Part shown: piece after piece, positions 521 through 10,181 of the stretch
Layout: every line of letters starts with the position of its first letter
Position numbering within the stretch: the first letter of the stretch is position 1
Assembly: GCA_032249095.1 (NCBI GenBank)
Contig: JAVVGN010000065.1
Span: 1 to 10,428 of the forward strand
DNA: 10,428 bases
Direction of reading: 5' to 3'
Source of the DNA: Candidatus Caldarchaeales archaeon
Lineage (GTDB): Archaea; Thermoproteota; Nitrososphaeria_A; Caldarchaeales; Calditenuaceae
Translations under genes and position numbers: made by a program
Notes under the pieces: generated by a model
What the model was told of the DNA's origin: nothing
The model's database searches: none
Seen by the model: only the letters and a program-made list of their open reading frames with translations

Positions 521-976
521 CTAAAGAGTCCTGCGAGTCTCTACAGCTAATGGATCGTCTATTGTGCTCCGTGTATTTTTGGCCGCCTTCTTTATCCCAG
601 CCATCTCCACCCAAAGCTCCGCCAGAGCCCTAACCTCAAGCTCCAACGGAGAAGCATAGAGTGGCTGGAACAGACCTGGAGCCTTATAGAACATCTCTCT
701 CAGAGCCTTCACGTCGTTCTCATCCGTCTTCCTAAGACCATTGTTCCTTCTCACTTCGGAGACCGCTTTCAAATCTCCAAGCCTCAGGGACACCGCCCCG
801 TCAAGCCGCGTCATGGTTGGTAGGAGCCTCCTCAGATAACTATCAGCAACCACCATCTTCGGCCTCAACTTCTCAAACATCTCTAGGAAGTCGTTGAAGA
901 CCATCACCTCCTCGCCATCCTCCGGAAGAGCATAGACCCTCCCATGTCCGAAGTCAACGAAGACCCCACTCACCAC
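521..976 (-). pseudogene. IS110-family transposase, N-terminal DEDD (RuvC-like) domain fragment, 151 aa, ending at a TAG
   Basis: GVFVDFG matches the first catalytic-Asp segment (consensus GIDVsK). GLRKTDENDVKALREMF matches the conserved KTDxxDAxxLAxL motif. ELEVRALAELWVEMAGIKKAAKN matches the helix preceding the linker (R.L.r.R..Lv......N). The start is GTG at 976, with an SD-like GGAGGT (complement of 983-988) and a TATA-like GATAAAG (complement of 999-1005) upstream. Confidence 0.6.
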
Positions 977-1466: not shown

Positions 1467-4295
1467 GTGGGGGAGGGTCCCGTGGAGGCTGAGGAGCTGC
1501 TGTGCCGCCCGGTCTTGGAGGCGGTTTACGAGAAGTTCGGGGGGCTGGCCGAGACCCAGAGGGCCGCCATCCCCCACATACTCAGGGGCGAGAACGTGCT
1601 CATCAGCTCGCCGACAGGCACGGGCAAGACCGAGGCCGCCCTCCTCCCAATACTACACTCCATCCTGACGGACCCCACAGTCCGGCCCATCTCCACCCTA
1701 TACATTACTCCCCTACGGGCGCTGAACAGGGACCTCCTCGACAGGCTCGAGTGGTGGTCTAGGAGACTCGACATCTCGGTCTCCGTGAGGCATGGCGACA
1801 CCCCGCAGCGGGAGAGACGTGTCCAGGCCATAAGCCCGCCCCAGATACTCATAGCCACACCCGAGGCGCTCCAGTCTCTCCTGATAGGGCGCGTCATGAG
1901 GACAGCCCTCTCTAACCTCAGATGGGTCATCGTAGACGAGGTGCATGAGCTGGCGACGGACAAGAGGGGGGCCCAACTGGCCGTCGCGCTCCAGAGAATC
2001 AGGAAGATCACGGGTAGGAGGTTCCAGCTCCTCGGCCTCTCCGCCACGGTAGGCGACCCCGGGGAGGTCGCGCGCTTCCTAGTCGGGCCCGCGGAGGGCT
2101 TTGTGGTTGTTGAGACTAGGATGCCGAGGGGGCTGGAGGTCGAGGTTGTCTTCCCCGAGACCGAGGCGCGGGATGTGGAGGTGGCCGGGGTTCTGGGGGT
2201 CGCGCCCGACGTCGCGGCCAGGATGAGGACAATCATGCAGCTTGTCTCGGAGCACTCATCAACACTTATCTTCACCAACACGAGGCCCCTCGCCGAGGCC
2301 CTCTCCAACAGGTTCAAGGCCTGGGACGAGGCCTTCCCAGTCTCGATCCATCACGGCTCCCTCTCCCGCGACCATAGGGTGAGGGCTGAGAAGGACCTGA
2401 AGTACGGCGAGATCCAGGGCCTGATCTGCACATCGAGCCTCGAGATGGGGATCGATGTGGGCAGGATAGACTTCTGCATCCAGTACAACTCGCCGCGAGA
2501 GGTCTCCCGCCTCGTCCAGCGTGTGGGCAGGAGCGGACACAGGATAGGGGGCGTCGCTAAGGGCGTCGTAATAGTCATGGACTCGGACGACGCGCTCGAG
2601 GCCCTCGTGATAGCCCGGAGGGCTAGGAGCGGCCAGCTCGAGAAGGTGAGGGTGGTGAAGAACAGCCTAGATGTCGCCATGCACCAGATAGCCGGCCTGC
2701 TCCTAGAGTATGGCCGGATAGAGAAGTCCGAAATCATGGAGCTCCTCAGACGGACCTACAACTTCTCAGACTTCAGCGAGGCCGACCTAGAAGCCCTGCT
2801 CCAGTACATGGGTACCCTCGGCATAGCGAGGGTCTCCGACGGCATAGTCCAGAAGCCCCCAAGAACCAAACGCCTCATCGAATACTACTTCGAGAACCTC
2901 TCGATGATTCCCGAAGAGAAGCAGTACCTCGTCGTGGAGGAGGAGAGCGGCGAGCCCGTCGGGATCCTTGACGAGGCCTTCGTCGCCGAGTACGGCGAGG
3001 TTGGCACCAAATTCATACTCGGAGGTAGGCCCTGGATCATCCTCAACCTCTCCGGGACCAGGATATACGTGGCGAGGCTTAAGGAAGGTGAGGGGGCCGT
3101 ACCCTCCTGGGTCGGGGACGAGATCCCGGTCCCCCTCGAAGTGGCTATGGAGGTTGGAGAGATAAGACGGCGCTACCAGGAGCACAGAGAGGGCGGCGCC
3201 TCGGCGGAGGAGGCCATAGCGGAGCTGGCTGACGAGTACCAGACCCCGCGCCACATCATGTCTAGGGCTCTGAGAGAGGTGGAGGAACATATCTCGCTCG
3301 GGATCCCCGTACCCACGGACAGGCGAATAGTGGTTGAGGAGGCCGACGAGTATGTCGTGGTCCACGTAACCGGCGGCCTCAGGATCAACAGGACCCTGGC
3401 CAGGCTCCTCACCGTGCACCTTGCGGAGAAGGTCGGGGCCCCGGTCTCGGCCCAGTCAGACCCCTACAGAATAGTTCTGAAGAGCAAGACCCTCTCGGCA
3501 GACAACATCCTGCAGGCACTCGGAGAGATCCTCAGTGAGAAGCTTCTGAGGAGGGCCGTGGAGACTTCGGGCGTCTTCAGGAGGAGGCTGGTCCACGTGG
3601 CTAGGAAGATGGGCGTGGTGGGGAAGGAGGTGAGTCTCCTAGACGTTAGCGCCCAGATGCTCGTCGAGTCCCTAAAGGGGACCCCTGTCTACGAGGAGGC
3701 CCTCAGATTCACGGTCTTCACCGACTATGATTGGGAGGGGGCCAAGTGGCTTATAGGCGAGGTGCAGGCGGGCAGGATCGAGACTGCCAAGTGCACGCTC
3801 GGAAGCCCCAGCCCCCTCGCCTCGCTCACCATCAGCAGATACCAGCACGAATACGAGGCCTACACACCCGAGAGGATCCACAGACTGGTCGTCAACGCCG
3901 TGAGGGCGAGGATAAACAGCGAGCTCGTCGTCCTAGCGTGCGTAGACTGCAGAAAATATGTCGAGACGGCTGAGGTCGGGGGCGTGGAGGGCAGGCCTTC
4001 CTGCCCCCTATGCGGGTCCCAAAGAATAGGCGTCGTGAGGACCGCCGGGAGGGAGGATGTCGAGAACGTTCTCCGCGGCAGGACCACCGAGTCTAGGAGG
4101 CTCTGGAGGGAGGCGGAGCGCACCTCCCCCCTTGTCGAGAAGTACGGCAAGGCGGCGGTGTTTGTCCTCTCGGCGAGAGGTATGAGTGTTAAGGACGCGG
4201 AGCAGCTTCTGAGCCGGGAGCCGAGGATCTCTCCCAGGCTGATCGAGGAGATAATCGAGCACGAGAAGAAGGCCCTGCTGAGGGAGTTCAGCTAG
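1467..4295 (+). CDS. lhr: Lhr-type (large helicase-related) ATP-dependent DEAD/DEAH-box SF2 helicase, 942 aa, with a C-terminal Cys4 zinc ribbon
   Basis: Motif I SPTGTGKT (1608-1631), Ia ITPLRAL, II DEVH (1935-1946), III SAT, then IFTNTR, HHGSLS, TSSLEMGIDVG and QRVGRSGH (motif VI). A long winged-helix/DEAD-associated region follows, as in Lhr-core. CxxC...CxxC lies at 3939-4013 (CVDC...CPLC). Size and domain order fit archaeal Lhr. Confidence 0.9.
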   Translation: MGEGPVEAEELLCRPVLEAVYEKFGGLAETQRAAIPHILRGENVLISSPTGTGKTEAALLPILHSILTDPTVRPISTLYITPLRALNRDLLDRLEWWSRRLDISVSVRHGDTPQRERRVQAISPPQILIATPEALQSLLIGRVMRTALSNLRWVIVDEVHELATDKRGAQLAVALQRIRKITGRRFQLLGLSATVGDPGEVARFLVGPAEGFVVVETRMPRGLEVEVVFPETEARDVEVAGVLGVAPDVAARMRTIMQLVSEHSSTLIFTNTRPLAEALSNRFKAWDEAFPVSIHHGSLSRDHRVRAEKDLKYGEIQGLICTSSLEMGIDVGRIDFCIQYNSPREVSRLVQRVGRSGHRIGGVAKGVVIVMDSDDALEALVIARRARSGQLEKVRVVKNSLDVAMHQIAGLLLEYGRIEKSEIMELLRRTYNFSDFSEADLEALLQYMGTLGIARVSDGIVQKPPRTKRLIEYYFENLSMIPEEKQYLVVEEESGEPVGILDEAFVAEYGEVGTKFILGGRPWIILNLSGTRIYVARLKEGEGAVPSWVGDEIPVPLEVAMEVGEIRRRYQEHREGGASAEEAIAELADEYQTPRHIMSRALREVEEHISLGIPVPTDRRIVVEEADEYVVVHVTGGLRINRTLARLLTVHLAEKVGAPVSAQSDPYRIVLKSKTLSADNILQALGEILSEKLLRRAVETSGVFRRRLVHVARKMGVVGKEVSLLDVSAQMLVESLKGTPVYEEALRFTVFTDYDWEGAKWLIGEVQAGRIETAKCTLGSPSPLASLTISRYQHEYEAYTPERIHRLVVNAVRARINSELVVLACVDCRKYVETAEVGGVEGRPSCPLCGSQRIGVVRTAGREDVENVLRGRTTESRRLWREAERTSPLVEKYGKAAVFVLSARGMSVKDAEQLLSREPRISPRLIEEIIEHEKKALLREFS

Positions 4296-4914
4296 TCCTC
4301 TCCAGCCCCTCTCCACCCTCCTCGGCCTGATCCTCGGCGGCCTGTTCGGGTGGTGCCCCACCGCTCCCCGGGGCCAGGGAGGCGAAGGCCTTCAGGAGCT
4401 CCTGTTTGTCAACCTCGACGAAGGTCCTCCAGCCAACGCTCAGGACACCGTCCTCGCTCCTCAAGAGGTAACCTCTCCTCGCCAGCCTCTCGAGAGTCGC
4501 CTCAACCCTCCACCTAGGATACTTCGACTCGAGGAGCTCGACAACCTCCTTCTCCGGAGAGCTGCCATTCCTGGAAAGCAGGTAGGCGAGTGTCGCCGAT
4601 AGTATGGCCAGCTCGTCTAGGCTGTATCCGAGCGTGGGTATGTCGGAGAGTGTGAGTGGGTCGGCGAGCACTATGTAGTACCTCGCCTTGTCGTAGTCGT
4701 TGGGCTCCGCATCGGGGTCTGGGACGACCTTCAGCCTAAGCCCTATCTGCCTGAGCCTCGAGTCGAGGGCGCTCATCACCTTAGGGAAGCTCTTCCCAAG
4801 CTTCCTCCTCAGCTCCCAGCCCCTGACGCCCGGGAGCCTGTGTCCTGAGGCCAGGATCATGGCCGCCGCCTGGGCCAGCCTTTTCTCCAGCTTACCAACC
4901 TCCTCCCCGCTCAA
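4288..4914 (-). CDS. Kite-like tandem winged-helix protein (Nse3/MAGE-like by eye; ScpB-like is the alternative), 208 aa, with an acidic C-terminal tail; third gene of the SMC-like operon
   Basis: The segments [22 protein letters not shown] ... [13 protein letters not shown] ... [27 protein letters not shown] ... [10 protein letters not shown] ... [17 protein letters not shown] follow the order and spacing of the two winged-helix halves of the MAGE homology domain, recalled from human NSMCE3/MAGE-G1. The TTG start at 4914 overlaps the upstream stop (TTGA). An alternative ATG lies 19 codons downstream. Confidence 0.5.
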   Translation of the reverse strand: [208 protein letters not shown]

Positions 4915-5660
4915 GCCGCCTCACCGCCCCTCCCGAGCGACACGACCAGCGAGGTCGTCCTCGGCTCATCCGACACCACGCCAGCCGCCCTGATCCATAT
5001 CTCGCGTCTCAGAGTATCAACCCTCACCTCAACCTCTCCCCTAGATATGAGGTAGCTGAGGAGGTAGGCCCTTCTCGCCCTCTCTCCCACACCCTTGGCG
5101 CCTATAAACTCCCAGTAATTTGTCCAGCCCCTCCTCGAGGAGAGCTCTGCGAGAAGCTCCTCAAGATCCGCGCTTATCTGTTTCTCGATCGCCTCGTAGG
5201 AGGGTTGCTGTGCGGATCCCACCGCCTCGCCCCAGAACTCGGCCAGCCCCCTCGCGGGTTTGGAGAGGAAGTGCTCGTAGCCCCGCATGAGAAGCTCCAC
5301 CGAGATCTGCTCGATCCTCGCAATAGGTCTCCAAGCCTGCAGGAAGGCTGAGACCAGGTCCCTGGGATCTGCAGAGAGGATCTTGGAGTAGACAAGGTTG
5401 GCGTCGATGAAGAGGGATGAGGCGCGGTCCCTTATCCATCTCTGCTGGAGCCCCAGGACCACCGTAACCCTGTAAAGCGTCTCAGCGTCAAGAACGACTA
5501 TCTCCGAGTCCCTCTCCCTCTCGATTATCTCCCTCAGCCTCTGGAGGAGCGAGGAGACGTCGACGCTGAAGGGGTCTAGCCTCCTCCCCTCTATCTCGCC
5601 CAGTATCGACATCATCCGGATGAGCTCCTCCCTGAAGACCCTGACCTTCCCGCTACTCAC
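4911..5660 (-). CDS. Kleisin-like protein (ScpA/Nse4-like), 249 aa; second gene of the SMC-like operon
   Basis: The N-terminal segment RLDPFSVDVSSLLQRLREII...VVLDAETLYRVTVVLGLQQRWIRDRAS fits the ScpA N-terminal helical pattern (idi.di.i..i..qYl.yl...l..a.e.l.maa.L...Ks). The C-terminal WTNYWEFIGAKGVGERARRAYLLSYLISRGEVEVRVD...REIWIR fits the kleisin C-terminal winged helix (f..l...r...v.tFLalLEL.k.g.v...q...geI.i). Its size and its position between the SMC-like and kite-like genes also fit. The GTG start at 5660 overlaps the SMC stop (GTGA). An alternative ATG lies 15 codons downstream. Confidence 0.6.
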   Translation of the reverse strand: MSSGKVRVFREELIRMMSILGEIEGRRLDPFSVDVSSLLQRLREIIERERDSEIVVLDAETLYRVTVVLGLQQRWIRDRASSLFIDANLVYSKILSADPRDLVSAFLQAWRPIARIEQISVELLMRGYEHFLSKPARGLAEFWGEAVGSAQQPSYEAIEKQISADLEELLAELSSRRGWTNYWEFIGAKGVGERARRAYLLSYLISRGEVEVRVDTLRREIWIRAAGVVSDEPRTTSLVVSLGRGGEAA

Positions 5661-7396
5661 GTCGCATCACTCATGGAGGTGACGAAGGACGACCCCCCCA
5701 CATTCTGAGTAATAATGAGGTTCACGCCGTCCGTCACAGGTATCCTCCCCGGCGTTATGAATAAGAACTGGACCGTCGGGTTGGCCTTAGCCATCTCCAC
5801 AAGTATCCTGGTCACCATCTCCCTGTTGAGTGGGTCGAGATGGACATCGAACTCGTCGACGGCCCTAATGGGCGACTTGACGTAGCTCTGGAGGGCGAGT
5901 AGGAAGGCGAGGGTCGAAACAACCCTCTCGCCGCCGCTGTGGGTCCTCGCGTCAACGAGGGTCGGCTCCATCCCCCTGAATCCCGCGAAGAGCTCCAGCC
6001 TGGCCGTAGGCGGATCGTCGAGCCCCCTGATCCTGATCATGCCCCGCCCCCCTACAGCCTCAAGAAGCCTCTGATAGACCGGGTTAATGTTCTCTAGGAT
6101 CTCCTCAAGCTTCTCCCTCCAGACCTGCCTCCTCCGCTCCACCTCCTCCAGAGCCCTCCTCACGTTCTCCTCTAGCTGCCTCGCCCTCGCCTCGACTTCC
6201 TTGAACCGCGAGTCGGCTAGGAAGAACATCGCCTCCGCATCGGGCGTCACCTTTCCTAGCGAGGCTATATTCAGGGTCACCATCTTCAGCTCCTCAAGGA
6301 TGTCGGAGGGCTCCCTAGTGGTCGGGACCTCCCCACCCCGCTGCCTCGCGGCCTCCCTCCTCTCCTCCAGCTCCCTCGAGAGGGACTCTATCTCCGACTG
6401 CGCCTCGGTTATCTCCCTCGACAGCTCTCCGATCCTGTAGCGCCTAATCCCCTCCTCGACCGAGACACTCACAAGCGAGTCTACGAGCTCCAGCACCTCC
6501 TCCGGGCTCCCGCCCCCATAGAGCCTTTCCCGAATCCCTCCCCTGAGGGCCCCCGCCTCCCGGCCAAGCCTCTCAGCCTCCTGCTCCAGGCCCTCCCTCT
6601 CCCTCAGGAGCCTCTCAAGAATACTCCTCTTCCTCTCGAGGCTCCTCAGGACTTGGTTGGCGAGGCTCCATGCATATTCCAGCTCGAGGCTGTTCTTCCG
6701 CTCCTCGAGGCTCCGGAGCTGCTGAAGCTTCTGGAGCTCCCTCCTCCAGTATTCGACCGCCTCCCCAGCCTCCGCCAGCAGCCTCTTGACAGAGGCCTCC
6801 TCAGACCTCAGGCTGTTGAGCCGCGCCTCTGCGTCCATAATCCTCTCCCTTAGGCTCGCGATCCCCACGGCGTCCTCCATGGCCCTGAGCTTCTCCACGT
6901 CATCCCTGGCCGCGAAGTTCTCGATCATGTTCTGGTGCATTATGATGAGGGCGTTGTTCGGGTTTATTCCGAGCCCCCGGAGAAGCTCCTCAAGCTCCGC
7001 CTTGGGGGTGAACCTATTGTTAACATAGTGCCAGTACTCCCCGTTCTTCTTGATGTAGCGCGTGATGGCGATCTCGTCGGACTTGATGTGCCTAAACGGC
7101 CTCTCACCGTTGACCGGCGAATTGTCAAGAATCACGGTGAGCCTCGCCGCCTCCTTACCCCTCCTGATCAGGTCGCTGAGCCTCGCCCCCCTCTCGGTGT
7201 AGGTCTGGCCAAGGGCCACCGCGAGGCCGAGGAGGATCGAGGATTTCCCGGAACCGTTGGGGCCCGTAATAACGTTGAGTCCCGGCTCGAGCCTAATCCT
7301 AGAGTACTCGTGGGACATGAAGTTTTCAAGTATGATCTCGCGTACGAAGGTCGGCCTTACACTCGTCTCAGCCTCGCCAAGCCGCGCCCTTGCCAA
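5657..7396 (-). CDS. Short hinge-less SMC-family ATPase with Smc5/6-like head motifs (archaea-specific SMC-related protein, possibly ClsN/coalescin- or Sph-like), 579 aa
   Basis: N-terminal head: FVREIILENFMSHEYSRIRLEPGLNVITGPNGSGKSSILLGLAVALG, with Walker A at 7238-7264. Q-loop: IIMHQNMIENF. About 130 aa of heptad-rich coiled coil lies on each side of a short apex (RLYGGGSPEE, ~6497-6526). Signature motif SGGE at 5927-5938. Walker B/D-loop VDEFDVHLD, with DEFD at 5846-5857. The H-loop position reads QFLFITPG. TTG at 7396 is the only possible start upstream of the conserved NFMSH strand. Confidence 0.85.
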   Translation of the reverse strand: MARARLGEAETSVRPTFVREIILENFMSHEYSRIRLEPGLNVITGPNGSGKSSILLGLAVALGQTYTERGARLSDLIRRGKEAARLTVILDNSPVNGERPFRHIKSDEIAITRYIKKNGEYWHYVNNRFTPKAELEELLRGLGINPNNALIIMHQNMIENFAARDDVEKLRAMEDAVGIASLRERIMDAEARLNSLRSEEASVKRLLAEAGEAVEYWRRELQKLQQLRSLEERKNSLELEYAWSLANQVLRSLERKRSILERLLREREGLEQEAERLGREAGALRGGIRERLYGGGSPEEVLELVDSLVSVSVEEGIRRYRIGELSREITEAQSEIESLSRELEERREAARQRGGEVPTTREPSDILEELKMVTLNIASLGKVTPDAEAMFFLADSRFKEVEARARQLEENVRRALEEVERRRQVWREKLEEILENINPVYQRLLEAVGGRGMIRIRGLDDPPTARLELFAGFRGMEPTLVDARTHSGGERVVSTLAFLLALQSYVKSPIRAVDEFDVHLDPLNREMVTRILVEMAKANPTVQFLFITPGRIPVTDGVNLIITQNVGGSSFVTSMSDAT

Positions 7397-7410
7397 TAAT
7401 CCCCGAGAAA

Positions 7411-7439
7411 AATCCTCCGGAGCCTCAATAAAGAGGATT
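7411..7439 (-). promoter_or_regulatory. Candidate promoter of the SMC-like operon: TATA-like TTTATT (complement of 7427-7432) bracketed by a 7-bp inverted repeat AATCCTC / GAGGATT
   Basis: The TATA-like element lies 31-36 nt upstream of the TTG start at 7396. The inverted-repeat arms at 7411-7417 and 7433-7439 were read directly. An adjacent bulged 8-bp hairpin lies at 7437-7463. Confidence 0.4.
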
Positions 7440-7526
7440 CCCCACCCCTCCGAAAGTGGGAATACGTCGGGATGACTCTGAGGAGGTACAGTTTAGGCGG
7501 CGGGGCTCGATGGGGAGGGGAAGGGA

Positions 7527-7560
7527 TTTAAAATAGGCTGCCCTATTCTTAGAAATAGGG
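7527..7560 (+). promoter_or_regulatory. Candidate promoter/operator of the 141-aa ORF: strong TATA box TTTAAAATA (7527-7535) followed by three AATAGG(G) half-sites, including the palindrome CCCTATT-N6-AATAGGG
   Basis: The TATA box ends 34 nt upstream of the ATG at 7569. Half-sites are AAATAGG (7531-7537), CCCTATT (7541-7547, inverted) and AAATAGGG (7553-7560). The palindrome covers the expected transcription start. Confidence 0.5.
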
Positions 7561-7568
7561 GGTTCATC

Positions 7569-7994
7569 ATGGAGATTGACGTCAAGACGGCGATCGAGAG
7601 GTTCAGGCTCTTCGTGATCTATAACACTTGCCTCTCCCACATACCGAAGGGCTATTTGAAGGATCCTACGATCTTTCCCGAGAGGGATGCCGACAAGGGC
7701 GAGATCTACGTCGAGGCGGCGAGTAAGATCGAGCTTGCGAGGATCAGGGATATACGGTTCGTGAAGGCCGCCGACATCCTAGGCGTCATATACAGGTCCA
7801 AGACCGGGAACACCAACCTGAAGTGGAGGCAGATTAGGGGGAATATTGGGAGGCTCACGGGTGTAGCCTCGCCAAACTCCATAGTGAACCTGCTTGAGGC
7901 TAAAGTCTTGACCAAGGAGTATATAGAGGAGTTTCTCCGGCATAAGTCGGCCGGCGCGAAGACGGAGGCCGAGAACACAGCGGCGAAGGTCTAG
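7569..7994 (+). CDS. Hypothetical protein, 141 aa, no family recognised
   Basis: ATG start with a good TATA box upstream. Codon usage (AGG Arg, ATA Ile, GC-rich third positions) matches neighbouring genes. No recognisable motif. The 3' end overlaps the convergent archaemetzincin gene by 4 nt. Confidence 0.55.
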   Translation: MEIDVKTAIERFRLFVIYNTCLSHIPKGYLKDPTIFPERDADKGEIYVEAASKIELARIRDIRFVKAADILGVIYRSKTGNTNLKWRQIRGNIGRLTGVASPNSIVNLLEAKVLTKEYIEEFLRHKSAGAKTEAENTAAKV

Positions 7995-8509
7995 GACAGC
8001 AGTCTCGACCTACAGGCCTTGCAGGGCTCGACACCCTTTAAGTCCGTGTCCTCGACTGTGTTGCTGAAGAACATGACGCACCGCGAGTCTACGCAGTGTC
8101 GGAGCCCGAGCAGGTGGCCGACCTCGTGGACGACCTCCTTCCTCAGCCTCTCTATGTATTTTGCCACGTCGGTTGTCCGGAGCCTGTAAACGGAGACGAC
8201 GGCCGTGTCCCTGAAGGCGAGGCCGAAGCAGTAGTTATACCTGTCGAAGTAGATGTCCAGCCCGGTGATGTGTAGTTGGAGGCCGTTCCAGGAGCCGTGT
8301 CTGGAGAGGCTTTGGACCGTCTTGTAGGCGTCGGCCTGCCTCCGGGCGGGGTTGATGCTCTTAGCCGCGGGGTCCTCCTCCAGCTCCTGCTCCTCGGTCC
8401 TCAGCCCGAGCACATCCTCAACCGCCCTCGCCGCTATCCTCCTCTCAGACCTGAGGCTCCCCGTGGAGGTGATCAGGACGCTCCCGCTCCTCGACAGCGA
8501 GGGCATCAA
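7991..8509 (-). CDS. amzA: Archaemetzincin (peptidase family M54 zinc metalloprotease)
   Basis: HEVGHLLGLRHC is the HExxHxxGxxH metzincin zinc site followed by Cys. It is followed by a Cys-rich second metal site, CVDSRCVMFF...CKAC. The ~170-aa length is typical. The track start is TTG at 8509; the adjacent ATG at 8504-8506 is the more likely start. Confidence 0.85.
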   Translation of the reverse strand: MMPSLSRSGSVLITSTGSLRSERRIAARAVEDVLGLRTEEQELEEDPAAKSINPARRQADAYKTVQSLSRHGSWNGLQLHITGLDIYFDRYNYCFGLAFRDTAVVSVYRLRTTDVAKYIERLRKEVVHEVGHLLGLRHCVDSRCVMFFSNTVEDTDLKGVEPCKACRSRLLS

Positions 8510-8565: not shown

Positions 8566-9150
8566 GTGGCGCCGTCGGTATACATTTTAGCAGGTACGCC
8601 GGGTGTCGGGAAGTCCACGGTCTCGCGGGCCCTTGCGTCTAGGATGGGGGTGTGGCTGCTTGAGCTGGCCGACATAGTGGGGCCTAGGGCCGTGGAGGTC
8701 TCGGCGAGCGCCCTCTCGGCGCGGGCCGGCTCGATGATAAGGAGGGGTGGGAGAGACGCCGTAATAGCCACTCATATCGTCTTCAAGCCCCGCTCAATAC
8801 CTGTCCGGGCGGCTGTGGTTCTGAGGCGGGACCCCTACAGGCTTCTCGAGGAGCTGGCTATGCGAGGCTATCCCGAGGCCAAGGTGCTGGAGAACGTCGA
8901 GGCGGAGCTCCTCGGCATCGTCTACTGGGAGGCGCTATCGAGGTTCGGCGCTGGCAGGGTGTTCCAGATAGATACAACGGGGAGGGGGGGTGAGGAGGTT
9001 GTGGAGCTTGCCTACGAGGCTCTCACTGGTGGGTGGAGGGGTGAGGACATCGACTGGATAAGTAGGCTGGAGTCTGAGGGGAGGCTTGAAGGGCTCGTGA
9101 CAAGGCTCTCGACTAGGGGAAGAGCCTTAACGCACTACAGAGAGTCGTAG
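8566..9150 (+). CDS. Fap7 / adenylate kinase isoenzyme 6 (AK6)-like P-loop NTPase, 194 aa
   Basis: N-terminal P-loop ILAGTPGVGKSTVSRALA. The motif VVLRRDPYRLLEELAMRGYPEAKVLENVEAELLGIVYWEA matches the AK6/Fap7 pattern VLR.dp..L..RL..RGY...K..eN.e.Ei......EA. The size fits archaeal Fap7. GTG start. Confidence 0.75.
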   Translation: MAPSVYILAGTPGVGKSTVSRALASRMGVWLLELADIVGPRAVEVSASALSARAGSMIRRGGRDAVIATHIVFKPRSIPVRAAVVLRRDPYRLLEELAMRGYPEAKVLENVEAELLGIVYWEALSRFGAGRVFQIDTTGRGGEEVVELAYEALTGGWRGEDIDWISRLESEGRLEGLVTRLSTRGRALTHYRES

Positions 9151-10181
9151 ACGCGCACAGCCTCCCTCGCTATTGCATCAGCCATCTCGAGGGTGCTCGC
9201 AGTCCCCCCTAGGTCATAGGTCACCGTCTTGCCCTCGGCGATAACCTTCTCGGTCGCTGCGAAGATGCTTCTCGCGTGGCGCTGGAAGCCTAGGTACTCG
9301 AGCATCCAGGCCGCTGATAGGATCGTCGCGGTGGGGTTTACCTTGTACTGGCCCTTGTATTTGGGGGCGCTTCCGTGGGCCGGCTCGAACATGGCGTAAC
9401 GGTCGCCTATGTTGGCAGAGTAGACTAGCCCTATGTTGCCTATGAGGGATGAGCAGAGCTCGGAGATCACGTCCATGAATAGGTTGGTGCTTAGGAGGAC
9501 TGTCTGGTTGAAGCGCTGGGGGTTCTTGACGAGCTGCTGCGCCATGTTATCGATGTAATACTCCTCGAGCTCTATGCCGGGAAACTCTTTCGAGACGGCC
9601 TCAACTCCGCCCCAGAACATGCTGTCCGTCAGCCTCAGAATGTTTCTCTTAGTTATCGCTATCACTTTGCCATACCCCCGCCTCACAGCCTCTATGAAGG
9701 CGACACGCGCTATCCTCTCGGAACCGGTCCTAGTGATCTTCCTTATGGCGATCGCGGTGTTCTGGTCGAGTAGGGCCTCGGCTCCTATGTAGAGCCCCTC
9801 CGTGGCCTCCCTGACGCATAGAAAGTCCACCTCGCCCAGCGGCCCGACCCTGCCCTTAAAGGTCTTGATCGGCCTCAAGTTGGCGTATAGGTCCATCCTC
9901 CTCCTAATGTTGACCGCGACGCTCCCAGGAGCGTTTGGGTCGGGGGGTGTGGTGGTTGGGGCTTTGAGGCATGCGTCGCTGTTTAGTATGGCATCCCACG
10001 TCTCGGGCGGGATGAGGTTCGGGAGGGCTGGCCTCCCCGCTGATACCCACCACTCGTATCCCGCGTCGCACCTGACTACCTCCAGATCCGGCTTGAGGGC
10101 CTCGATAACCCTCAGCGCCGCCTCAGCGAGCTCGGGGCCAGTTCCATCCCCATTAATAACGACAACCCTCTTTCTACCCAA
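9135..10181 (-). CDS. Isocitrate/isopropylmalate dehydrogenase family protein (beta-decarboxylating dehydrogenase), 348 aa
   Basis: Family motifs in order: VVVINGDGTGPE, NIRRRMDLYANLRP, REATEGLY, ITKRNIL, YYIDNMAQQLVKNP, NLFMDVISE (variant of N-x-x-GD-I/Y-x-SD), FEPAHGSAPKYKG, NPTATILSAAWMLEYLG. TTG start at 10181 with a TATA-like TAAATA about 33 nt upstream. No leuCD or other pathway genes are present in the window, so substrate specificity is not assigned. Confidence 0.85.
   Translation of the reverse strand: MGRKRVVVINGDGTGPELAEAALRVIEALKPDLEVVRCDAGYEWWVSAGRPALPNLIPPETWDAILNSDACLKAPTTTPPDPNAPGSVAVNIRRRMDLYANLRPIKTFKGRVGPLGEVDFLCVREATEGLYIGAEALLDQNTAIAIRKITRTGSERIARVAFIEAVRRGYGKVIAITKRNILRLTDSMFWGGVEAVSKEFPGIELEEYYIDNMAQQLVKNPQRFNQTVLLSTNLFMDVISELCSSLIGNIGLVYSANIGDRYAMFEPAHGSAPKYKGQYKVNPTATILSAAWMLEYLGFQRHARSIFAATEKVIAEGKTVTYDLGGTASTLEMADAIAREAVRVYDSL

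Follow-up and report, generated by a model that had tools for sequence, protein, structure and literature searches.

A short-armed SMC5/6-related SMC, kleisin and kite operon in Caldarchaeales

We analysed a 10,428 bp stretch of DNA, here called the window, that comprises positions 1 to 10,428 of contig JAVVGN010000065.1 from a Candidatus Caldarchaeales archaeon (assembly GCA_032249095.1). Three consecutive open reading frames (ORFs) on its minus strand encode a short-armed, apparently hinge-less structural maintenance of chromosomes (SMC) ATPase related to SMC5/6 (ORF1), an Nse4-type kleisin (ORF2) and a tandem winged-helix kite of the Nse1/Nse3/MAGE type (ORF3). We are highly confident of these subunit identities and of the type of complex that they specify. 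The best overall explanation for the locus, and in our judgement a probable one, is that it encodes an archaeal SMC5/6-related SMC complex, which may act as a short-armed DNA clamp in repair or replication.

ORF1 (5657..7396) and ORF3 (4288..4914) start with TTG and encode 579 and 208 amino acids (aa), respectively, and ORF2 (4911..5660) starts with GTG and encodes 249 aa. As the initial annotation of this DNA had proposed, the three minus-strand genes are joined by overlaps of 4 nucleotides (nt), and coordinates and sequence agree on this: the TGA stop of ORF1 shares bases with the GTG of ORF2 in a GTGA (5657..5660, minus strand), and the TGA of ORF2 shares bases with the TTG of ORF3 in a TTGA (4911..4914, minus strand). 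Inspection of the sequence revealed Shine-Dalgarno-like GGTGA/GTGAT motifs 6-12 nt 5' of both internal starts. Four public contigs carry an identical ORF1, and genes called on them independently have products of 579, 249 and 208 aa; the start positions are backed by N-termini that are kept in homologs. As the order SMC, kleisin, kite is kept in 45 of 46 independent loci, the observed layout is more than chance. The initial annotation had also described the trio as much smaller in format than known complexes. This holds for the SMC protein, which is unusually small; the 249 aa kleisin and 208 aa kite are of ordinary size for prokaryotes.

A protein annotated as "AAA family ATPase [Candidatus Caldarchaeales archaeon]" has the same sequence as ORF1, and all close homologs of the trio are found in metagenome-assembled genomes (MAGs) of Caldarchaeales, Calditenuaceae, Caldarchaeum, Wolframiiraptor and Pelearchaeum. 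The host, a hot-spring archaeon at first taken to be crenarchaeal (Thermoprotei), instead belongs to the Caldarchaeales ("Aigarchaeota"), which NCBI places in the Nitrososphaerota.

Identity of the three subunits

ORF1 belongs to the SMC family of ABC ATPases. It matches Pfam SMC_N with an E-value of 1.8e-32 and contains a Walker A motif (GPNGSGKS, aa 45-52, nt 7241-7264), a Q-loop (MHQ, aa 153-155), a signature motif (SGGER, aa 487-491, nt 5924-5938) and a combined Walker B/D-loop (VDEFDVHLD, aa 513-521, nt 5834-5860), all encoded on the minus strand, with residues that are invariant in the family alignment. When ORF1 was compared with all PDB sequences using phmmer, yeast Smc5 was the best match (8e-39), followed by yeast and human Smc6 (~1e-26; 1.2e-26) and Pyrococcus Smc (4e-25). 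Cohesin and condensin SMCs matched at 1e-16 and weaker, and Rad50 at ~1e-7. A consistent picture emerged when 1.84 billion representatives were searched exhaustively with phmmer. The clade of ORF1 itself occupies the matches down to ~1e-35, and among ten full-length (~1000-1200 aa) matches that were checked below it, at 1e-34 to 1e-30, the informative names were eukaryotic Smc6 (Bactrocera, Thecaphora) and Smc5 (Saccharomycodes).

The head motifs of ORF1 had been likened to those of eukaryotic Smc6, and this proved sound. All four of the motifs quoted in support are present, namely ENFMSH (aa 24-29), SGGERVVSTLAFLLAL (aa 487-502), the Walker B/D-loop given above and QFLFITP (aa 543-549), and they align with RNFMCHE, LDEFDVFMD and IIITPQ of yeast Smc6 and with QYFLITPK of yeast Smc5. 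In the alignment, ILENFMSHEYSRIRL of ORF1 corresponds to ILRNFMCHEHFELEL of Smc6 and AVDEFDVHLDPLNR to ALDEFDVFMDQVNR, and QFLFITPGRI lies opposite QYFLITPK in Smc5 and IIITPQDI in Smc6. Judged from its sequence, ORF1 is an SMC-head ATPase that is closest to eukaryotic Smc5 and Smc6.

A different origin for ORF1 would make it an ASRP (coalescin/ClsN, Sph or Arcadin-4) or a Rad50/RecN-type ATPase that is followed by unrelated winged-helix proteins. Its length of 579 aa is indeed near that of the ASRP profile (593 positions), and it has weak matches to the ASRP (NF045487, 1.1e-14) and Rad50 (1.2e-18) profiles. However, these matches reach 54 and 67 bits, respectively, where the cut-offs are 300 and 700, and Smc5/6 proteins rank far higher in the PDB. 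ORF1 has no cysteine and so no CxxC motif, no Mre11 gene was found nearby in the window or its flanks, and the two genes downstream, which are inherited together with ORF1, specifically resemble a kleisin and a kite. We consider this explanation highly improbable. The score against the canonical archaeal and bacterial family TIGR02169 (SMC_prok_A) is likewise below its cut-off, at 178 bits versus 729. As all three scores are far under the curated cut-offs, ORF1 is not a canonical Smc, a Rad50 or a coalescin/Sph-type ASRP. Thus, an ASRP/ClsN-type affiliation, which had been entertained in the initial annotation, has to be abandoned, and the view that ORF1 is not of the Rad50 type stands.

For ORF2 and ORF3, the signal came only from family-level scans and structure models, not from scans of the single sequences; it is at the family level that profile searches returned the kleisin and kite matches expected from the initial annotation. 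The 20 homologs of ORF2 are 240-263 aa long, and one of them has a precomputed PF08743 annotation. When 17 aligned members were scanned singly, Nse4_C was the sole family matched more than once, by three of them (best 9.9e-7). The top three matches of the ORF2 alignment profile in the PDB were human EID3/NSE4B (E-value 0.053) and, twice, the C-terminal domain of Pyrococcus ScpA (0.25 and 0.39). Singly these matches are insignificant, and they are mutually consistent in that all three are kleisin C-terminal winged helices.

In an AlphaFold2 model of ORF2, which has a predicted local distance difference test (pLDDT) value of 63.5, two domains are fairly well predicted, one helical and N-terminal (aa 1-83), the other a C-terminal winged helix (aa 155-225), and the middle (aa 84-155) is predicted poorly, as is expected of a kleisin modelled without its partners. 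Foldseek comparison of this model with the PDB placed 7qcd_F and 7tve_G first and second, with 226 and 269 aligned columns, and both chains were verified to be yeast Nse4. These were followed by the ScpA C-terminal domain bound to the Smc head, the Scc1 C-terminal domain and further kleisin C-terminal domains. The middle of the protein, where model confidence is low, contains residues that are invariant in the family (W110, P112, E117, Q118, G127, F131 and P135), and it is presumed to bind the kite. We conclude that ORF2 is a kleisin and that its closest resemblance is to Nse4.

Among 33 aligned homologs of ORF3, 19/33 match SMC_Nse1 (best 2.6e-6) and 19/33 match MAGE (best 3.5e-4), and NCBI lists one homolog as "MAGE domain-containing protein". 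The only PDB sequence matched by the ORF3 profile is the MAGE/Nse3 chain of an Nse1-Nse3-Nse4 complex. The AlphaFold2 model (pLDDT 84) has two winged-helix units and an acidic, disordered C-terminal tail (aa 184-208). Its best Foldseek matches were MAGE-G1/NSE1 (4e-6 and 1.6e-5) and chains of Nse1-Nse3-Nse4 complexes (3e-5 and 7e-5), with MAGEA4, kite chains of Smc5/6 and MukE further down. ORF3 has no cysteine, and therefore has no Nse1-type RING. No ScpA or ScpB family of Pfam or NCBIfam was matched by the window proteins or by members of the ORF2 and ORF3 families. Thus, ORF3 belongs to the kites of Nse1/Nse3/MAGE archetype, and the earlier descriptions of ORF2 as kleisin-like and of ORF3 as a tandem winged-helix, MAGE-like kite were both well founded.

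Arms and apex of the SMC protein

ORF1 is half the usual size of an SMC protein because the distal part of the arm and the hinge are missing. Its coiled-coil arm region (6086..6883, minus strand) consists of an ascending helix (approximately aa 172-290) and descending helices (approximately aa 298-437) that are interrupted at aa 353-385, and it contains neither a hinge domain nor a CxxC motif. The turn between the two is a glycine-rich apex, LRGGIRERLYGGGSP (aa 284-297, nt 6506-6547, minus strand). The alignment with yeast Smc5 covers aa 11-240 of ORF1 (35-266 of Smc5) and aa 380-550 (877-1050 of Smc5), and aa 245-319 of ORF1, approximately 75 aa, take the place of 558 aa in P0250, a 1047 aa relative from Bathyarchaeia. 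The arm is approximately 118 residues, or ~17 nm, long.

In an alignment of 20 short members of the family, the apex columns are hypervariable and rich in insertions and deletions, and W217, W243, R422 and W426 in the head-proximal part of the arm are invariant. The SMC_hinge profile matched neither the whole of ORF1 nor its isolated middle segment, and none of the 20 short members contains a CxxC motif. ORF1 thus reads as an SMC protein that lacks both hinge and zinc hook. The short form dominates: 50 of the 53 clusters (50% identity) nearest to ORF1 (E < 1e-90) are 541-685 aa long.

Longer relatives were found. In P0271 (982 aa, locus L055, 4001-8248), the best Pfam match of the globular middle is SMC_hinge, a weak match under the cut-off (0.0049), and the kleisin and kite genes are kept downstream. 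Three Bathyarchaeia relatives of approximately 1020-1050 aa, P0250 (locus L051, 2105-5248), P0252 and P0264, have heads that are approximately 40% identical to that of ORF1 and share a CxxC motif of the form C-(D/E)-(K/R)-C-G in mid-protein (KPQIRCDKCGSLL, KPQIKCDKCGSIL and TYITCERCGSTL). This motif resembles a Rad50 zinc hook placed where an SMC hinge would be; the Pfam family of the Rad50 zinc hook did not match the segment, and the label draws on the motif itself. At L051, the sole locus of the CxxC type examined, no kleisin or kite gene lies within 6 kb. Hinge, hook-like and apex-only forms therefore all occur in the clade of ORF1.

Conservation, neighbourhood and proposed role

A scan with the kleisin profile, which used one genome per species and two peptide patterns and says nothing about more distant lineages, returned 46 loci, all from Caldarchaeales. 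Genes for SMC, kleisin and kite keep their order and orientation in 45 of them. At the junctions, the genes overlap by up to 23 nt or lie up to 19 nt apart; two outliers (-77 and -609) are put down to start calls, which are approximate throughout. At the remaining locus (L022, 5001-5723), the kleisin has no SMC or kite gene alongside, perhaps because the locus is rearranged or the MAG contig chimeric. More distant lineages were reached by searching the representative library and looking up contigs. Outside Caldarchaeales, kleisin and kite genes follow SMC relatives of 601 aa (L052), 657 aa (L054) and 982 aa (L055), and these distant kleisins and kites were confirmed with family hidden Markov models (E-values 1e-27 to 1e-66). 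The gene order, whose conservation in related genomes had been suggested as a check on the initial annotation, thus extends beyond Caldarchaeales to relatives in Nitrososphaeria and Bathyarchaeia. No kleisin relatives were found on the viral contigs or plasmids searched. The trio is a chromosomal, vertically inherited operon of the core genome.

Downstream of the trio, on the plus strand, lies a gene for a 942 aa Lhr-type helicase (1467..4295; Pfam DEAD, Helicase_C, WH_Lhr and DEAD_assoc). It is convergent with ORF3, and their 3' ends share 8 nt. An Lhr gene adjoins the trio in 32 of the 46 Caldarchaeales loci and recurs beside distant trios (L052, 7098-9806; L055, from 10586). The helicase is a possible functional partner of the trio, and we do not claim it as a subunit. 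No paper tying Lhr to an archaeal SMC was found in the literature.

The architecture of the complex can be sketched by analogy with Smc-ScpAB and Smc5/6-Nse4-Nse1/3. ORF1 would form a homodimer whose two heads engage upon ATP binding. ORF2 would bridge these heads, with its N-terminal helical domain on the neck of one and its C-terminal winged helix on the opposite cap, and its conserved middle would carry a homodimer of the ORF3 kite. Once the heads engage, driven by ATP, DNA would be clamped between them and the module of kleisin and kite. Given hinge-less arms of ~17 nm, the compartment between arms and hinge would be tiny or open. Arms of approximately 118 residues, a variable glycine-rich turn and the lack of a hinge or hook speak for a clamp or tether that holds DNA at short range rather than for a long-armed loop extruder, and the Lhr neighbour, together with the analogy with eukaryotic Smc5/6, suggests work in repair or at the replication fork. 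The clamp and repair role, taken by itself, is tentative, and we lean somewhat away from it. A canonical Smc-ScpA-ScpB, which a sister genome, Candidatus Calditenuaceae archaeon HR02, carries, would then fill the long-armed role.

The trio could instead be the main machine for chromosome folding and segregation, a smaller, condensin-like loop extruder equivalent to Smc-ScpAB. Such a machine would have the complete SMC, kleisin and kite subunit logic seen here and would be expected at a core-genome locus that, like this one, is conserved throughout the order. However, the arms are approximately one-third of the canonical length and lack a hinge, ORF1 falls well short of the TIGR02169 cut-off, the kite matches Nse1/MAGE and not ScpB, and HR02 has a separate condensin/cohesin-related SMC-kleisin-ScpB trio. 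These findings make a main chromosome organiser unlikely.

Human Smc5/6 restricts extrachromosomal DNA, and a role in defence against plasmids or viruses, as in Wadjet- or Lamassu-like systems or in SMC5/6-style episome restriction and possibly with the Lhr protein as a BrxHI-like helicase, also has to be weighed. Short-armed SMC-like ATPases are typical of Lamassu, and PADLOC profiles matched ORF1 (mad3, 1.3e-29; LmuB, 1.1e-25) and the helicase (BrxHI, 3e-103). These matches, however, reflect generic similarity of heads and helicases. ORF2 and ORF3 match no defence family, and no nuclease or effector gene (JetD, LmuA) was found nearby. The housekeeping flanks and the same position throughout the order point to vertical inheritance rather than to a variable island, and the failure to find relatives on viral contigs or plasmids is in keeping with this. 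Defence is, in our view, a very unlikely function.

The interpretation that we favour, an SMC5/6-related clamp for repair or replication, has several points against it. Scanned alone, ORF2 matched no Pfam or NCBIfam family, and ORF3 matched no NCBIfam family and gave only sub-threshold Pfam scores (SMC_Nse1, 0.0081; MAGE, 0.026). The ORF2 model is of moderate quality, and the E-values for ORF2 are marginal when taken singly (2.8e-3 in Foldseek, 0.05-0.4 for the PDB profile matches). The absence of a hinge is argued from length, the lack of a profile match and the variable apex, not from a structure, and the apex could still dimerise through a novel small motif. Assembly of the complex is predicted from the genes and from analogy, and the putative repair role is suggested by gene neighbourhood and analogy. 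The Lhr gene is missing beside the trio in 14 of the 46 loci, and it is convergent, not co-transcribed. Finally, a canonical Smc-ScpAB is known from the sister genome HR02 and can only be presumed for the genome of the window itself.

Upstream of ORF1 is a divergent intergenic region of 172 nt (7397..7568). By inspection, it contains a TATA-like TTTATT (7427-7432, minus strand) approximately 33 nt ahead of the TTG start, a position that would imply a very short leader for ORF1. A scan of the window for bacterial-type promoters and terminators, which is not applicable to archaea, gave nothing useful. The divergent neighbour of ORF1 (7569-7994, plus strand, 141 aa) could not be assigned to a family: it has no relative in Pfam, NCBIfam or the PDB, and only a weak PADLOC match. 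It is found in the same position at 26 of the 46 related loci with 55-85% identity, and is better conserved than the kleisin.

The remaining genes on this side encode housekeeping proteins identified with Pfam, namely an M54 archaemetzincin (7991..8509, minus strand), an AAA_18 nucleoside/adenylate-kinase-like protein (8566..9150, plus strand) and an isocitrate/isopropylmalate dehydrogenase (9135..10181, minus strand). The last two genes are convergent and their 3' ends share 16 nt. On a 14.5-kb public contig, the flanks of the trio include genes for HMG-CoA reductase, eIF2alpha, an HD hydrolase and SerRS, along with the dehydrogenase, the AAA_18 kinase and the archaemetzincin. No tRNA genes and no Rfam RNA genes were found in the window.

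At the other end of the window, positions 1-1466 have a G+C content of 0.47-0.54, compared with approximately 0.6 elsewhere. An ORF located there (521..976, minus strand, 151 aa) has no family match; it includes the stretch RKTDENDVKALREMF, which we take to be loosely reminiscent of IS110-type transposases. A fragment of a DDE transposase lies close to the trio locus on a related contig (L003). Positions 1-1466 could represent the margin of a mobile element.

Precedent and comparison with known systems

An "SMC5/6-related aSMC" (archaeal SMC) was defined by Yoshinaga and Inagaki in 2021 (10.1101/2021.05.15.444277) from 80 proteins. Of these 80, 66 come from the TACK group (Thaumarchaeota, Aigarchaeota, Crenarchaeota and Korarchaeota) and 44 co-occur with a canonical aSMC. 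Operons that combine an SMC5/6-related SMC with an Nse4-like kleisin and an Nse1/3-like kite were then reported from TACK and Asgard archaea by van Hooff, Raas, Tromer and Eme in a 2024/25 preprint (10.1101/2024.01.07.573240). In their Supplementary Table 3, BEHE01000017.1_4, _3 and _2 of Candidatus Calditenuaceae archaeon HR02 are listed as SMC5/6-related SMC, Nse4-related kleisin and Nse1,3-related kite, respectively, and BEHE01000012.1_19, _18 and _17 as condensin/cohesin-related SMC, kleisin and ScpB-like kite. Their trees place the HR02 SMC ortholog among the SMC5/6-related SMCs. Contig BEHE01000017.1 is one of our 46 loci (L006), and its SMC, kleisin and kite are 77%, 69% and 81% identical to the window proteins, respectively. 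This makes the window trio the ortholog, in another species, of an exemplar already in print, and the kind of system is known. The initial annotation had left undecided whether the trio had been described; it has, and as the HR02 ortholog is already in van Hooff et al., the central idea was right and is not new.

Both studies are purely phylogenomic, and no experimental work on the archaeal SMC5/6-related family was found in the searchable literature. In the accessible parts of the text and supplements of van Hooff et al. (10.1101/2024.01.07.573240), the terms "helicase", "Lhr" and "zinc hook" were not found, nor was "hinge" with reference to these proteins, and the same parts indicate that coiled coils were stripped from at least the eukaryotic SMC ortholog alignments. 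Short hinge-less arms, long relatives with CxxC motifs and an Lhr neighbour likewise go unmentioned in what is accessible of the two papers. Three features have apparently gone unremarked: arms that are short and lack a hinge, an apex that is plastic across the clade, and the linkage to Lhr.

The trio confirms the published picture in which the canonical complex of TACK archaea is accompanied by an SMC5/6-like SMC-kleisin-kite complex, and this second complex bears on an archaeal origin of eukaryotic SMC5/6. Taken together, our observations could mean that the dominant archaeal form of the SMC5/6-related complex is a natural "mini-SMC" made up of head, neck, kleisin and kite, with arms of ~17 nm and no hinge or hook, that is tied to an Lhr-type helicase and whose apex type and arm length are plastic beside the root of eukaryotic Smc5/6. 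We regard this joint reading as almost evenly balanced, falling just short of even. If it were true, the mini-SMC could not close the usual compartment between arms and hinge and would have to hold or move DNA differently. A conserved complex that is short-armed and hinge-less would be a natural minimal version, which could separate the activities that need long arms or a hinge from those of the clamp formed by heads, kleisin and kite. The small, presumably thermostable trio is attractive for structural and single-molecule studies, and its recurring Lhr neighbour is a testable lead to a role in repair or replication.

Among known systems, Rad50, RecN, Lamassu LmuB and ASRP/ClsN are like ORF1 in size, in their short antiparallel coiled coils and in having no canonical SMC hinge. 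They differ in having a zinc hook, another apex or none, and their partners are nucleases or other proteins, not a kleisin and a kite; the profile scores of ORF1 against these short-armed ATPases are weak. With Smc-ScpA-ScpB the trio shares the SMC-kleisin-kite logic, the operon and the sizes of kleisin and kite, and the ScpA C-terminal domain is among the top matches of ORF2. Unlike that complex, its SMC is far under the SMC_prok cut-offs, has approximately half the length and lacks a hinge, and its kite is not ScpB-like. Compared with SMC-kleisin complexes in general, ORF1 has the ABC head and not the hinge domain through which their two arms dimerise.

The likeness to eukaryotic Smc5/6-Nse4-Nse1/Nse3 extends to the head motifs and best matches of the SMC, the Nse4-type kleisin and the MAGE/Nse1-type kite. 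In contrast to the Smc5/Smc6 heterodimer, the window has one SMC gene, presumably for a homodimer, and one kite gene without a RING in place of Nse1 and Nse3. No Nse2, Nse5/6 or other Nse-like gene was found in the window or its flanks. Eukaryotic Smc5 and Smc6 are proteins of ~1100 aa with a hinge, whereas the SMC of the trio has hinge-less arms of approximately 118 residues. With the archaeal SMC5/6-related complexes described in the two papers, the trio has in common the family, the subunits, the single operon and TACK hosts, and there is no difference in kind between them.

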